Of a DNA stretch of 64,000 bases, positions 51,001 to 57,000 are shown one piece after another. Each line of letters begins with the position of its first letter. Position 1 is the first letter of the stretch. The DNA is from an uncultured Verrucomicrobiota bacterium (GTDB taxonomy: Bacteria; Verrucomicrobiota; Kiritimatiellia; JAAZAB01). The position numbers were made by a program. Location of the stretch: NCBI GenBank assembly GCA_964475165.1, contig CAYYVN010000001.1, positions 31,518 to 95,517 of the forward strand. The letters run 5' to 3'.

Positions 51001-54000
51001 GTTATGGTTATAGCGATTGACGCCGGCCGCTTTGAGCTGGCGCGCCTGGGGCAGAGTCAAGAGGCCCAGCGAGACGCAGACTTGAATGGGCACTTCTTTT
51101 TTCAGGGCATGTACTATTTGACAGATATGACTGATATCGCGTGCGCTGGGATTGCGACCGCTGGAGACGATACAATAGCGGAAGGCGCCCAGGCGCTGAG
51201 CTTGGCGCGCGCCTTCAATGATATCCGCTGGCGATTGCCAGGGATAAGGAGGCGTATGGCTGTGGCTGGCGGCCGACTGACTGCAATAAGCGCAATCTTC
51301 GCTGCAGTTACCCTGGCGCGCATTACGGATCAGGTGCAGGCGCACCCCGCGCTTGAAATAGCGCAGCCGCAGGCGGAAAGCGGCATCGAGCACCGCCAGC
51401 AAGGCATCATCTTTCGACTCCAGAATGGCCAAGGCTTCCCGGGGCGTGATCTGACCGCCCCGCAGGACGCGCTGGCTTAATTGTTGCCAATTCATTTTTT
51501 ATATTCTCCCTCTATCCCGCCGTTTCCGACTGTGCGCCAGGGATGTGCCTTGAATTTCAGCTACCGCTTTCGGGAAAAATCATAGCCTCGGCAAACTGGG
51601 CCTGAAAATCCGCTGCTTGCGATAACTCAACATGGCGGGTTTGGCGGGCGATGATTTCGGCCTGGTGCCGGGCGGCGGTATTCAATAGCACCCACTTGGC
51701 GCCGCTGAGCGCCGCATTGCCCAAGCTGGTAATCCTTTTATGCTCAATATCCGGCGGCAATAAACCGATGCGCTGGGCATGTTGGTGGCGGATAAAATTG
51801 CCGAAGCCGCCGGAGAGCAAAACGGCGCGGATAGCGCGAGGATTGATGCGCGCCTGCTTGAGGAGCAAGGTGATACCGGCTCGAATGGCGCCGGCCCCCA
51901 GTTGCACCTCACGGATATCGCGTTGGGTGAGCAGGAGCGGCTCCCGTTCGCGCTGGCACACCAGAAATTCTGGCGCGCCGCTCCGGTTCAAGCGCACGCG
52001 CTGCGCCAGCGCCACGGGCAGTCGGGCCGGCAAGGCATCCGGGGCCAATAGTTGGCCGGCGGGCGTGAGGATACCATGGTTCAATAATGCTGCTATGAGA
52101 TCAATCAAGCCACTGCCGCAGATGCCCTTGGGCGGCAGCTGGCCGATGACTTCCAGATGTAGATCATCATTCAGAACCACCTTTTCGATAGCGCCCGGCT
52201 CAGCGCGCATCCCGCAACTGAGGCGCGCGCCCTCGAAGACCGGGCCAGCGGCGGTGGATGCGCACCAGAGCCGGCCATCATGGGCCAGCACGATTTCGCC
52301 ATTGGTGCCCAGATCCACCAGCAAGAGGGGTGTTTCGCGTTCCAAGATGCGGCTCGCTAGCATACTGGCGACGGTATCCCCACCGACGAAGCCACCGATG
52401 ATTGGCAAGACATAGGCGCGCCCGCCCGGGGCGATTGATAAACCCATTTGCTGGGCCGCGCCGGCCAGACCTGCCGCCTGCACCGGCGCAAAGGGCAGCT
52501 CGCCCAGAAAACGTGAATCAATGCCGCAGAGGATCTGCTGCATGGCAGTGTTGCCGGCCAGGACCACTTCATAGATCTGCTGGCATGTGACGGCGGCTTG
52601 GTCGCAGAGATGGCTGAGCATATCGGTCAAGGCCTCGAGCAGCACGCGGCGCAGATCTGCCAGGCCCTCGGGCTGCAGCGTGGCATGGCGGATACGGGAT
52701 AAAACATCATCGCCATATTGTATTTGCGGATTCGGCCTGGCCACGAGCGCTTTTTCGGCGCCCGTGCGCAGATCGAGCAAAGTGCCTACCAGCGTTGTGG
52801 TGCCGATATCAAAAGCGGCACCGTAGAGCTGCTTGCTGGTATCACCGGCTTCGAAGGCGATCAGGTGTTGCGCGGCCAGCACGGCTGTGCCGGTGAAGTT
52901 TTCGGCACGCAAGCGGGCGGGCAGTTGACGCAGGAGCTCAAGATCCATTTGGAAAGGACCGAGGGCCTCCCGCAGGCGCAAGCAGTCGGCTCGCGCATCA
53001 TCCGGGGAAGGCGCGGGCATTTGCACAAAAAATTTGCGGATGGCAGGGATCAGTTCTATTTTTCTGCTGCTGGTAGCTGCCAGGATCTGCATTTGATCGG
53101 TCAGCAGAGCACTGGCGGGCACCTGGAGCTTCATATCCTGCTGCACGAGTGTTTGACAGGCCAAGCGCCAGCCGGCCTGCAGTTCCGGGCTGGTGAAGGC
53201 GGCTTGTTCGGCGGCAGTGGGCGGTGCGGCGCCGGCTGTGATTTGCACGCGGCATTTGGCGCAAGTCCCGGCGCCGCCGCAGTGAGCTTCAATAATCAAA
53301 CCAGCCTTGGCGGCGGCTTCGAGCAGGGCACTGCCGGGCAGCACACTGCTCATGCGTCCCTGGGATTCAAAGATAACCTTGAATTGTTTGGTTTGCATCA
53401 TTCCGCCTCGCCCTGGGTTTGCAGCAAGTAATTGGCGATGGCACGGTAGAGGGTGCTGACCGCCAGGATCGCGCAATGGCGCCCGGCCAGCGGCTGGCAT
53501 TCTCCGGAGCGGATAAGTTCGCCGGCGCTGATGGCGAGCGCCGCGCTGATTGATTTTCCTTGCGCGCGCCGCGCCACGGCTTGTCCGCAAGCGCGCGTAT
53601 TGGCACAGCCTTCGGCGTAATACGAGGCCTTGAGGATGGTATCGTTTTGGATCTCAAGGTAGATTTCCATCGTATCTCCGCACGGCCCACGAATCGCGCC
53701 GGCGCAGGTGGGCGCGGACATGCGACCATAAAAGGCATCTGTTGAAGGAGGCTGTGGGATGGTTTTCATAAAACGCCAACACCGTAGAAACGATCTTTCA
53801 TCCAGCGATCATATTCTTCCCATTCCTTCTGACGGTCAATCAATAAAGCGAGCCGTTTTCCGATGACCTTGGCCAGCAGTTCATCATTGGCGAGCAAGGG
53901 GCGCTTGGGGATGTGGCCCTTGGCCAGCAGCTCGTAGGCTTCATTGATCACCTGAAATTTTTCAGCGTTACCGCCGCGCATATCAGGATGATATCGTTTG

Positions 54001-57000
54001 GCGCGTCGCCGATAGGCACGCTGGATTTCAGCGGGTGTTTTGCCGAGGGTTAAAAGCACCAATTGGGCGCGCTCCCGCAGGGTGAAGCCCTTGATCTCCT
54101 CCATGGCATCAGCGGCCTGGGCGAGTGTTTTCATGCTGCGGGCATGCTCTCTCTGTGCTGATCCGGGAGCTGGGTGCGCAGCATCCGCCGCGCACCCAAG
54201 CTCTGTCAACAAGTCGGCGGCTCAGATCGGCCCCTTCATCCCAGCTGCTTCTGGAGCGCAGCCACGAGATCCTTTTCCTGCTGCACGCCGATCAATCTTT
54301 CAACCTCCTGACCATCCTTGAGGATCACCAAAGTGGGGATGCTCCGGATATTGAAGCGCCCGGCCGCTTGGGCGGCTTCATCCACATTGCATTTGAAGAC
54401 CTTGGCTTGCCCGGTCATGGCCGCGGCCACTTTTTCCAGAATGGGCGCCTGCATTCGGCAGGGCCCGCACCAGGGTGCCCAGAAATCCACCAGGATCACG
54501 CCGCTGGCGGTCTGCGTTGCGAAATCAGCATCCGTGAGCGCCACGGGCGCCGCTTGGCTGGTTGCATTTGGTTCATTCATTGGCATGGCTCCTTTCTCTT
54601 GTTTATCCCTGATTGGGTCTGTGCTCGCTCTTCTTTTTTTCTGAAACGCAAGCCCACGAAGCCAGCCTGCTTCAGCAGGCCCGCTCTAGGCCGATGCGGC
54701 TTGAACTCTTTGGGGTCCGGCCCCATCAAAAGGCAACTGCTAGCCCGTTCAAAACAGAACCCAGCTTGCTCCGCCAAAGCGATTATCTGATGCGCAGTAT
54801 AGAACTGGGCGGCTGCATAGAAGGGATGCCCGGCCGCGCCCCGGCGCGCATAGGCTCGACCCCAGGCACTATTCTTGGGCACCAATCCGATGATGAGGCC
54901 CCCTTCCTTTTTCAGCACTCGCCAGCATTCAAGCAGGGCTTGGGTGGGATCGTCAAGAAAACAGATGGTCACCAAGAGTAGGGCGGCGCCAAAGCGATTT
55001 TGGCTGTAGGGCAGTTGTTCAGCGCGGCCTTGGCGAATGCGGATGCCCCGCCGGGCTGCATAACGCAGGGCAGCGCTAGATGGGTCGAGGCCCTCTTCGA
55101 TCTTGAGCGCCGCCGCGAAGCGCCCCGTGCCCACGCCTATTTCTACCCAGGGCCGCGGCAGACCGTTCAGCAAGCCGCGGATGCATTGTTTTTCGACACG
55201 GAAAATGCGGCGGCCATGGGGGCTTTCGAACCAGGCATCGTAGCGACTGGTCAGTTGTTGAAAAGGACTGCGGCGCCCGGGCGTTGACGGGAGAGCTTGC
55301 TTGCGGGGGCGTCGCCTAGATGGCTGCCGGGCCGCGGCGCGGCGCTGCGGCTGGCTGAGTGCTGGCGACATACTTGCTTTCATGAATGGTGTGGCGGGCC
55401 GACAGGTCTGGGACCGTCCAGAGCCTGGCGCACTTCTTGCCATATTCCAGCGATGATTGCGGCGGCGCGGCTGGCCCCGGCATACTCGATTACGGTTTGA
55501 CCGGCTATCAAGGCGTCGTTGATGGTTTCGTCGAAAGGTATTTGCCCAACTACCCGCGCGTGATATTGCGCGGCGAGTTGTGTGATGCGCTGCGCTTGTT
55601 CGGCATTGAGGTCGGCCTTATTGATGACCACCAGGGCGGGCACTTGAAAGTGTTGTGCCAAATCAAGCACGCGTTGCATATCGTGTACACCAGAGACCGT
55701 AGGCTCGGTGACAATCAAGATGAGGTCTGTCCCCGAAACCGAGGCGATCACCGGGCAGCCAACGCCCGGTGGACCATCGCTGATGATCTGGGCATATTGC
55801 AATGCTTGAGCTAATTCGGCGGCGCGGTTGCGTACCTGCGTTACCAGGCGGCCGGAATTTTCCTCGGCGATACCCAGGCGGGCATGCACCATAGGGCCCT
55901 GCGCCGTCGCTGAGACGAACCATTCTCCGGTGAGTGTGGGTGCGATGCAGACGGCTTGAGCCGGGCAGACATGAAAACAGAATCCGCAGCCCTCACAAGC
56001 CAGAGGATTGATGCGGTAAATGGCCTGGCCGGAGGTTGGCTCCTCGCGCTGGACGGCAGCGAAGCGGCAGACAGCGGCACATTGCCCGCAGCCGATACAT
56101 TGGTTGGTTATGATGGTGGCTTTGTGGCCGCCCATGAAAGGATGGGCTTCGCGCACCTGGGGTTTGAGCAGTAAATGTAAATCGGCAGCATCCACATCGT
56201 TATCGGCCAGGACACTCTTTTGAGCCAGAGTGGCCAGGGCAGCTACCAGCGTTGTTTTGCCGGTACCGCCCTTGCCACTGATAACGGTGACTTCCCGGTA
56301 GGCGTTGGAAGTTCCGGAGGGAAAGGGCTTAAATTTTCCGGGTGTGACCGTCAGTTCGGGCAAGGGTGGCGCGGGCGGCGGTGGGCTGCCGGGCAATTTC
56401 TGGATGGCACCATAAATCTCCAGCAAGACAGGGATTAATTCGGGATGTTTTTCGATCAAGAGCGCGCCGCTGGAATAGGTTTCGGCGTAGGCGCGTTGGA
56501 AAGGGATGCGGCCTAGAATGGGAATACCGCTGGAGGCGGCATAGGTGTCGATGAGGGTGTCGTGGGCCCCGGAGCGGTTGATCACGATGCCAGTGGGCAG
56601 ACCCATTTTCAGCGTCATGGCGGCGGCGAGTTTAAGATCATGCAGGCCGAAAGGCGTCGGCTCGGTCAAGAGCACGGCCACATCGGCCCCCTCCAGAGCT
56701 TTAACCACCGGGCAGGCTGTGCCCGGGGCGGCATCCAGGATATTGATGGCTTCCGGCTGAAGATGGCCTTTCACGGCCTCGACCACATTGGGCGCCAAGG
56801 TTTCGCCGACACTCAAAATACCGTGTGCGAAAAAGAAGGGCTGATGATGGGGGGCCACTTTAACCCGGCCGATCAGCACTGGTTCCTCGCGCAGGGCTTT
56901 TTGGGGACAGAGATAAGCGCATACTCCACAGGCATGGCACAGTTCATTGAAAATAAGCGCTTGGCCCTTGACGCAAGCGATGGCGTTGTAATGGCAGGCG

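Follow-up and report, generated by a model that had tools for sequence, protein, structure and literature searches.

Members of the RACo family, which join a 2Fe-2S ferredoxin domain to an ASKHA ATPase, have so far been regarded as reactivators of corrinoid enzymes only. In Desulfovibrio, the ORP (orange protein) system consists of Fe-S proteins that form a complex, and it is expressed only at very low redox potential (PMC6345978, PMC8359166). It is specific to anaerobes and its role is still unclear (PMC8359166), and one of its members, MrpORP, has been experimentally shown to be an Fe-S carrier that loads the ORP complex (PMC6345978). Here we describe a stretch of 64,000 nucleotides (64 kb; positions 31,518 to 95,517 of contig CAYYVN010000001.1, hereafter the window) in which a RACo-like gene lies inside an ORP-type operon together with genes for an IscU-like protein, a J-domain protein and a thioredoxin. 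No description of RACo-like genes in ORP clusters was found in the published literature. We ask what these four genes could do in such a place, and tentatively read them as an addition to the operon that would feed energised electrons, and a chaperone, into metallocluster assembly or repair.

The four genes and their products

The genes for the thioredoxin, the J-domain protein, the IscU-like protein and the RACo-like protein are consecutive and stand in the middle of one compact minus-strand string of approximately 14 genes, which spans from an OrpR-type sigma54 activator to MrpORP (Table 1). Upstream of the four genes lie the activator, two NifX-like genes, two DUF5320 genes, a radical-SAM/winged-helix gene, a MinD-Fer4 fusion and a methyltransferase; downstream lie BioB, a phosphatidylserine-decarboxylase (PSD)-family gene, a CoA_binding_2 gene, an MBL-fold gene and MrpORP. 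Four junctions of the string are 4-nucleotide overlaps of the form ATGA: MinD-Fer4 gene to methyltransferase (55380-55383), methyltransferase to thioredoxin (54577-54580), J stop to IscU-like start (53766-53769) and IscU-like stop to RACo-like start (53398-53401). The last two had been given in an earlier reading of this DNA (the original prediction); they and the minus-strand coordinates of the four genes were confirmed in the sequence. The open reading frame (ORF) of the J protein could be extended to a TTG at 54212, and gene callers choose the ATG. Scans for sigma70 promoters and for terminators within the operon gave neither above chance. Identical copies of the J and IscU-like proteins carry the label Lentisphaerae in public records, and the host is an anaerobic Lentisphaerota bacterium.

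The RACo-like protein has an N-terminal plant-type 2Fe-2S ferredoxin domain, a linker, a middle domain and a C-terminal ASKHA ATPase. In a profile search all four Pfam domains scored above their cut-offs (Fer2 40.8, RACo_linker 61.8, Raco_middle 169.4 and RACo_C_ter/ASKHA 241.4 bits), as expected of the RACo/DUF4445 type that had been proposed, and the RACo crystal structure 3ZYY aligns with the protein from end to end (E 1.4e-93), which upholds the ASKHA homology. No variation was seen among 14 members of the clade in Cys41, Cys47, Cys50 and Cys82 or in the ASKHA motifs DIGTTT, DLGTNGE and GGFG. The scores against the two curated equivalogs fell below their cut-offs, with 406 versus 800 bits for AcsV (NF040756) and 124 versus 500 bits for RamA (TIGR04270). 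Judged by sequence comparison, the protein belongs to a separate, uncharacterised clade of the RACo family, found in the PVC group, Planctomycetota, Hydrogenedentota, Nitrospirota and Fibrobacterota and 35-42% identical to other clades; its ORP-linked members form one subclade in a neighbour-joining tree. By homology it presumably donates single electrons, coupled to ATP, to a metal centre of low potential. The AGPAFEG loop, which in RACo bears the Co-binding Ser398, is conserved. The Ser398 position itself was considered as a discriminator of the acceptor and discarded: the aligned residue is Ala or Pro in 85 of 85 homologs, and the position is uninformative because this includes clades that are likely to act on corrinoids.

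The IscU-like protein matches the NifU_N domain (PF01592) with 54.6 bits against a cut-off of 22, and archaeal and bacterial IscU structures (7C8M and 4EB5). Its Cys30/Asp32, Cys55 and His98/Cys99 correspond to Cys37/Asp39, Cys63 and His105/Cys106 of IscU, so that the three conserved cysteines expected of a scaffold (C30, C55 and C99) are kept; this whole ligand set is invariant among the homologs. Across 38 homologs a five-cysteine signature is conserved (C30, D32, C55, C61, C91, H98, C99), in which C61 and C91 are two conserved cysteines beyond the canonical set; four of the five cysteines are invariant in the subfamily and one nearly so. In all aligned clade members the sequence ECxPxxGRHC stands in place of the Hsp70-binding motif LPPVK. 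The protein scored below the cut-offs for IscU (TIGR01999, 35.4 versus 192.4 bits) and for clostridial NifU (TIGR03419 NifU_clost, 49.8 versus 187.9 bits). At least 440 proteins belong to the subfamily, from Lentisphaerae, Kiritimatiellia and Planctomycetes. In four of the related loci described below (L090, L092, L173 and L174) a nearby gene codes for a pyridoxal-phosphate (PLP) enzyme of the cystathionine gamma-synthase family, with weak Aminotran_5 matches only.

The J protein contains a DnaJ domain (PF00226, 45 bits). Since H49, P50 and D51 are invariant in 43 sequences of its family, the J domain should activate an Hsp70. The family is small, with 49 homologs among 5.8 billion proteins, and all those with a named source are from Lentisphaerae or Verrucomicrobia, both of the PVC group; a metagenome scan gave five full-length copies. 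An AlphaFold2 model (pLDDT 75) consists of the J domain and one long conserved C-terminal helix, and a Foldseek search with this model against the PDB returned isolated J domains only (E of 1 or higher) and no HscB. An HscB-like identity was therefore rejected, as the C-terminal domain of HscB (PF07743) was also missing from the Pfam and NCBIfam matches. With this, with an IscU-like protein that lacks LPPVK and with no Hsp70 motif in the window, the 'IscU/HscB pair' of which the original prediction had been reminded is an analogy only. The fourth product, the thioredoxin, matches TIGR01068 with 115.7 bits against a cut-off of 96.8 and has the active site WCGPC.

The ORP-type operon and its counterparts in other genomes

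The gene string of the window is an expanded ORP cluster. Its last gene scored 530.4 bits against a cut-off of 450 for the MrpORP equivalog (NF041136), and the operon codes for MinD-type ATPases into which ferredoxin domains are inserted and for small Nitro_FeMo-Co proteins; from the published descriptions only (PMC6345978), we liken these to Orp3, Orp4, Orp5 and Orp8. Within the activator's PAS domain, three cysteines (C59-x8-C68-x3-C72) have the same spacing as C52, C61 and C65 of OrpR from Desulfovibrio vulgaris Hildenborough, which hold a redox-sensing cluster (PMC8359166). The spacer between the activator and the operon has a one-mismatch match to a -24/-12 site at 60396-60411, a candidate only, as the window-wide count of this motif equals chance. 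For one of the small proteins (59363-59718) the Nitro_FeMo-Co match (E 1.5e-10) covers only the part given by the ORF lister, 76 amino acids (aa) from a TTG. Upstream the reading frame stays open as far as a Shine-Dalgarno sequence, GGGAGG, after which ATA-AAA-ATC (IKIIITAQG...) is read; the full-length protein is therefore likely to have approximately 118 aa and to start at a non-canonical ATA (or ATC). The two DUF5320 genes code for Gly/Arg-rich low-complexity stretches, with CxxC pairs in the second one.

Recurrence in other genomes was followed by homolog searches and neighbourhood look-ups. Eight PVC loci of approximately 20 kb were annotated with Pfam, while two others (L012 and L051) were read by tblastn with the window proteins only. 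The RACo-like gene was found inside ORP-like superclusters in approximately ten independent loci from Lentisphaerota, Kiritimatiellia and Verrucomicrobiota (the window/L001, L007, L090, L091, L092, L012, L051, L173, L174 and L175), with a different gene order in each. About 15 families are shared: OrpR, NifX-like, DUF5320, radical SAM, MinD-Fer4, MrpORP, MBL, PSD, CoA_binding_2, IscU-like, thioredoxin, methyltransferases, PanD, a DUF89 phosphatase, the cystathionine-gamma-synthase-family PLP enzyme and a flavoprotein like coenzyme A (CoA)-disulfide reductase. The trio of MBL, CoA_binding_2 and PSD recurs in L007, L090, L092 and L174. The arrangement cannot be put down to chance, since other genomes have it too, and the tie to ORP-like genes that had been suggested from the window alone is real. 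The same is true of the association with IscU-like, J and thioredoxin genes; a thioredoxin stands beside the IscU-like or the RACo-like gene in L090, L174, L175, L176 and L177. As the IscU-like and thioredoxin genes are present in L176 and L177 without the RACo-like gene, these two are general parts of ORP clusters, whereas the RACo-like and J genes are optional additions.

Wherever the flanking sequence is long enough, the J gene is found within a distance of four genes from the RACo-like gene. The order is J-IscU-RACo in the window and L093, J-IscU-PanD-RACo in L092, J-IscU-PNPOx-PanD-RACo in L173, RACo-J in L007, L096 and L174, and RACo-MFS-64aa-J in L175. In L007 there is no IscU-like gene within 8 kb of the J gene, which therefore tracks the RACo-like gene better than the scaffold. 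No Hsp70 is annotated in L007, L092, L173, L174 or L175. Outside the PVC group, the Fibrobacterota locus L028 has a compact four-gene unit MBL-methyltransferase-IscU-like-RACo-like with opposite-strand genes on both flanks. Its MBL and methyltransferase genes are homologous to those of the window, the two methyltransferases being 37% identical (E 2e-36). No NCBIfam family was above cut-off for the window methyltransferase, and the identification of the RACo-adjacent methyltransferases as corrinoid-associated CpaM, ArsM or BioC was rejected, with all scores far below the cut-offs and several types among them. Radical-SAM/winged-helix homologs adjoin the RACo-like gene in L011 (Planctomycetales), L026 (Hydrogenedentota) and PVC loci. 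The radical-SAM gene beside the Fibrobacterota unit was also considered, and it is not homologous to the radical-SAM protein of the window.

Directly after the RACo-like gene of the window lies BioB (TIGR00433, 372.8 bits against a cut-off of 225). Aligned with E. coli BioB, its C107, C140, C200 and the Arg of VAGGRE correspond to C97, C128, C188 and R260. By the published criterion, which is based on the ligand set, it is a Type I enzyme, and these consume their own 2Fe-2S cluster (PMC10813225). This supports the original remark that BioB is itself an Fe-S client, but its position here is limited to the lineage of the window. In obligate anaerobes Type II BioB has been reported as the rule (PMC10813225), and a Type I enzyme is found here although the ORP cluster suggests a strict anaerobe. 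At comparable positions other loci have a HydG equivalog (L007, 3568-5061; 438 bits, cut-off 312), a true ThiC (L090, 17189-18511; 597 bits, cut-off 410) and a ThiC-like gene with a Pfam ThiC_Rad_SAM match only (L174, 12801-14126). The three cases of BioB, HydG and ThiC fit an operon that is tied to radical-SAM enzymes with consumable or labile clusters. That the ThiC-like gene of the sister clusters could be BzaF/BzaB, for the lower ligand of B12, was rejected from the ThiC score in L090 and a BzaB model below cut-off.

A set of genes that points to CoA- or pantetheine-type thiol chemistry recurs in L007, L090, L092, L173 and L174: a true PanD equivalog, the CoA-disulfide-reductase-like flavoprotein, CoA_binding_2, a DUF89 damage-control-phosphatase-like protein, the PSD-family decarboxylase, GNAT and a 4HBT thioesterase. 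The ORP-like cluster of L092, the closest relative, has an insertion (16181-20050) with two SBP_bac_11 genes, an ABC permease, an ATPase and a Zip transporter; as the SBP_bac_11 family includes molybdate/tungstate binders, this insertion may be a link to metal uptake.

Table 1. Genes and sites of the ORP-type operon in the window, in the order of transcription.
Feature	Position	Strand	Evidence
OrpR-like sigma54 enhancer-binding protein with PAS domain	60535-61935	minus	PAS, Sigma54_activat, HTH_8
Candidate sigma54 -24/-12 promoter TGGCACGCTTACTGCT	60396-60411	minus	one-mismatch match
Weak Nitro_FeMo-Co-like protein, first gene after the activator	59990-60379	minus	22.3 bits, below cut-off; gene called in L001
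Small Nitro_FeMo-Co (NifX/ORP-like) protein, probable ATA start	59363-59718	minus	Nitro_FeMo-Co E 1.5e-10
Two adjacent DUF5320 genes	58540-59360	minus	DUF5320 at 80 and 25 bits
Radical SAM protein with C-terminal winged-helix domain	57511-58455	minus	Radical_SAM, HTH_20
86-aa ORF between radical-SAM gene and MinD-Fer4 fusion	57248-57508	minus	called by gene finders in metagenome copies
Two fused MinD/CbiA-type P-loop ATPases with a 2x[4Fe-4S] ferredoxin domain inserted in each (Orp3/Orp4-like)	55380-57251	minus	CbiA x2, Fer4 x4
Class I SAM-dependent methyltransferase, 268 aa from ATG at 55383	54577-55383	minus	Methyltransf_11
Thioredoxin	54236-54586	minus	TIGR01068, WCGPC
J-domain protein, 122 aa	53766-54134	minus	DnaJ Pfam domain, HPD
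IscU-like protein, 123 aa	53398-53769	minus	NifU_N
RACo-like 2Fe-2S/ASKHA protein, 614 aa	51557-53401	minus	Fer2, RACo_linker, Raco_middle, RACo_C_ter
Biotin synthase BioB, Type I	50515-51495	minus	TIGR00433
Phosphatidylserine-decarboxylase (PSD)-family protein	49725-50426	minus	Pfam/NCBIfam
CoA_binding_2 protein	49286-49657	minus	Pfam/NCBIfam
MBL-fold protein	48449-49285	minus	Pfam/NCBIfam
MrpORP (Mrp/NBP35 ATPase fused to Nitro_FeMo-Co domain), last operon gene	47234-48436	minus	NF041136; Pfam ParA and Nitro_FeMo-Co

The 86-aa ORF had no Pfam or NCBIfam match and no homolog beyond the same species. Just past the end of the operon lies a crcB fluoride-channel gene (46597-46977, minus strand), with a fluoride riboswitch directly upstream of it (46986-47048, minus strand; Rfam RF01734, 52.7 bits, cut-off 34). 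Further away is a FeoB-like ferrous iron transporter (31316-33040, minus strand), assigned from its N-terminal sequence only; FeoAB genes flank the ORP-like clusters of L007 and L174.

Possible acceptors of the RACo-like protein

The explanation that we tentatively prefer, with a confidence that falls a little short of even, is that the four genes are an ATP-driven reductase and chaperone add-on to an operon for the assembly and maintenance (repair) of ORP-type metalloclusters. The activator would switch the operon on at very low redox potential. The IscU-like protein would then build or hold an Fe-S, possibly a heterometal-S, cluster, while the thioredoxin would keep ligand thiols or persulfides reduced. 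The 2Fe-2S domain of the RACo-like protein would take up an electron, and ATP binding and hydrolysis by its ASKHA domain would push this electron onto a low-potential acceptor. Such an acceptor could be the scaffold-bound cluster or an ORP carrier, and the purpose reductive coupling or the re-reduction of an oxidised cluster. The J protein might recruit the housekeeping Hsp70 (DnaK) to the complex for release or remodelling. From there the MinD-Fer4, NifX-like and MrpORP carriers could receive clusters, as could radical-SAM clients that consume them, Type I BioB here and HydG or ThiC in the sister loci.

This explanation draws support from the domain identities and intact catalytic motifs, from the ORP context and its recurrence with shuffled gene order, and from the single subclade that the ORP-linked proteins form. 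It is further supported by the self-contained Fibrobacterota unit, by a J family that is found near the RACo-like gene only, by the lack of corrinoid proteins in the annotated loci and by the radical-SAM clients. The original prediction had also suggested an ATP-driven reduction or repair of a metallocentre. The recurrent ORP context speaks for that part of it, but the corrinoid precedent of the family had not been weighed, and the IscU-like and thioredoxin genes occur without the RACo-like gene as well.

Several points weigh against a metallocluster add-on. All of its mechanistic steps beyond gene content and co-localisation we infer from context. ORP-like clusters L176 and L177 have the IscU-like gene and thioredoxin and lack the RACo-like gene, the IscU-like protein has no LPPVK in the alignment, and the J protein is without an HscB-type targeting domain. 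A motif search found neither a cysteine desulfurase nor an Hsp70 in the 64-kb window; HscA, IscS and a corrinoid protein, to which the original prediction had pointed as informative partners, were likewise not found within it. Nor can the gene overlaps be read as wiring between particular partners, as had been proposed. In related loci the RACo-like gene overlaps any gene that adjoins it, be it a methyltransferase, GNAT, PanD, YkoF-like, MBL or J gene, and since it does so with whichever neighbour, translational coupling does not identify a specific partner and is not partner-specific here.

Other points against it concern the family itself. Relatives in Planctomycetota, Phycisphaerae and some Kiritimatiellia, 49-55% identical, stand alone among unrelated neighbours (LysR or DeoR regulators, a GHMP kinase, an NTP transferase, a histidine kinase, archease/RtcB). 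In two Planctomycetota genomes a LysR-type regulator lies immediately upstream of the stand-alone RACo-like gene (L014, 9102-10004; L022, 8822-9739). Among the 80 best hits, no metagenome-assembled or species genome with an ORP-linked copy has a second RACo-like locus, so that the ORP-linked copy seems to be the sole representative of the family in its genome and would also have to cover any corrinoid need. To our knowledge, every characterised member of the family (RACo/AcsV, RamA and the O-demethylase activators) reduces protein-bound Co(II) corrinoids. Price et al. found that, in Phaeobacter and Desulfovibrio, ferredoxin plus DUF4445 (RamA-like) proteins and B12-dependent methionine synthase (MetH) are required together, which is genetic evidence for a role in MetH reactivation, and in Desulfovibrio the ORP genes lie at another place (PMC5764234).

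The strongest alternative, which we consider a serious possibility though a rather doubtful one, is that the RACo-like protein is an ordinary corrinoid reductive activase. Most likely it would act as a RamA-like reactivator on a MetH that has no such domain itself, or on some other corrinoid enzyme whose gene lies outside the cluster, and its gene would stand among ORP genes only because both are needed, under common regulation, at very low redox potential. In that case the IscU-like protein, the thioredoxin and the J protein would serve ORP/Fe-S biogenesis or the maturation of RACo's own cluster and would not be its substrates. Family precedent and genetics (PMC5764234) agree with an activase, and so do the full conservation of the four-domain architecture and of the AGPAFEG loop, the stand-alone relatives in many phyla and the single RACo-like gene per genome among the best hits. 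The clusters also contain a methionine-metabolism family, cystathionine gamma-synthase, and many SAM-using enzymes. However, searches of the window, which included the DxHxxG B12 motif, and the Pfam annotation of the eight PVC loci revealed neither a corrinoid-binding protein nor MetH nor a corrinoid methyltransferase. No corrinoid-binding protein was seen beside the stand-alone relatives either, where one URO-D gene lies 3 kb away in L009. As MetH-linked family members are genomically unlinked too, the lack of a corrinoid gene nearby is compatible with a corrinoid target. A B12-binding radical-SAM gene in the window (43429-44997, plus strand) would be in favour of an activase, but it is encoded on the opposite strand beyond the operon and lacks conservation in the other loci. 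Its best matches, HpnJ and BchE, are both below cut-off, it is convergent with the ORP-like operon approximately 2.2 kb past the end of the latter, and no second gene related to cobalamin was found in the window. The remaining evidence is more difficult to reconcile with an ordinary activase: the linkage with IscU-like, MBL and methyltransferase genes crosses phyla into Fibrobacterota, the dedicated J protein strictly co-occurs with the RACo-like gene, and the scores of the RACo-like protein fall a long way short of the equivalog cut-offs for AcsV and RamA.

A bolder form of the metallocluster add-on, in our opinion quite unlikely, dispenses with corrinoids altogether. The RACo-like protein, the strictly co-occurring J protein and the five-cysteine IscU-like protein would be a self-contained analogue of HscA/HscB/Fdx/IscU, in which a ferredoxin-fused ASKHA ATPase that is not an Hsp70 is itself regulated or targeted by the J protein and drives reductive Fe-S (or Mo/W-Fe-S) assembly or repair for ORP.

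We also give little credence to the possibility that the core of MBL, methyltransferase, IscU-like and RACo-like genes is a unit for processing a small molecule or metalloid, e.g., by ATP-driven reductive methylation, with the IscU-like protein as a stable redox cluster carrier instead of a scaffold and the ORP genes as neighbours with a related, separate role. The compact Fibrobacterota unit, which has these four genes without MinD-Fer4 or Mrp, would suit it, as would the class I methyltransferases that adjoin the RACo-like gene in L007, L091, L173 and L174, and the cysteine set of the IscU-like protein would be enough to hold a cluster permanently. Yet the RACo-adjacent methyltransferases are of at least three types, none above a curated cut-off; no substrate can be proposed, and the window methyltransferase lies at a distance of three genes from the RACo-like gene. 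It is equally improbable that the four genes are passengers in long PVC operons that gather unrelated anaerobic housekeeping genes (vitamin, redox, lipid), for although the clusters also contain PanD, ThiC, BioB, HydG, PtsI-like, PSD, amidase, MFS transporter and FeoAB genes, in highly variable order and with overlaps between whichever genes adjoin, about 15 families stay together across phyla despite extensive reshuffling, and the J family is found nowhere else, which neutral hitch-hiking would not preserve.

Comparison with known systems

The RACo-like protein has the four-domain architecture, the 2Fe-2S ligands and the ASKHA motifs in common with RACo/AcsV of Carboxydothermus hydrogenoformans (3ZYY, 4C1N). 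Unlike RACo, RamA, the O-demethylase activators and the RamA-like MetH reactivators, it is encoded in an ORP-like cluster, with no corrinoid protein near it in the Pfam-annotated loci. Should its acceptor be a cluster of the Fe-S or heterometal type, RACo-family chemistry would be wider than now known and a new route of Fe-S biogenesis in anaerobes would be at hand; if its acceptor is MetH, the annotation is an ordinary one, a RamA-like reactivase co-regulated with ORP genes.

The IscU-HscB-HscA-Fdx branch of the ISC system is similar in that a homolog of a U-type scaffold stands beside a J protein, a 2Fe-2S ferredoxin module and an ATPase from the actin/Hsp70 (ASKHA) superfamily are joined in one protein and the gene order is tight. 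In contrast to that branch, the J protein of the window has no HscB C-terminal domain, its scaffold lacks LPPVK and has two extra conserved cysteines, HscA and IscS are not found in the window and the ASKHA ATPase is of the RACo type and not an Hsp70. NifH, in P-cluster and FeMo-co assembly, and DCCP-R, the ASKHA-type reductase of the double-cubane cluster protein, are alike in concept, since in both an ATP-energised electron is delivered to an Fe-S cluster (PMC7317905, PMC9351452), and the operon of the window, too, has NifX-like proteins and P-loop Fe-S ATPases. The families differ, as NifH belongs to the P-loop proteins and DCCP-R, which has a bridging 4Fe-4S cluster, to the HgdC-type ASKHA proteins, and the Fe-S acceptor in the window is putative.

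The ORP system of D. vulgaris (Orp3/4/5/7/8, MrpORP, i.e., Orp9, and OrpR) shares with the window MrpORP, MinD-ferredoxin ATPases, NifX-like proteins, DUF5320 and the cysteine spacing of the OrpR PAS domain. Whereas D. vulgaris has two divergent operons, the window has one long operon, in which the Orp3- and Orp4-like genes are fused. It has, moreover, approximately ten extra genes, including those for the RACo-like, J and IscU-like proteins, thioredoxin, methyltransferase, BioB, PSD, CoA-binding and MBL proteins, none of which is described for the Desulfovibrio orp operons (PMC6345978, PMC8359166). ORP-type systems may thus include a step of energised electron input and chaperone action for metallocluster assembly or repair under strongly reducing conditions.

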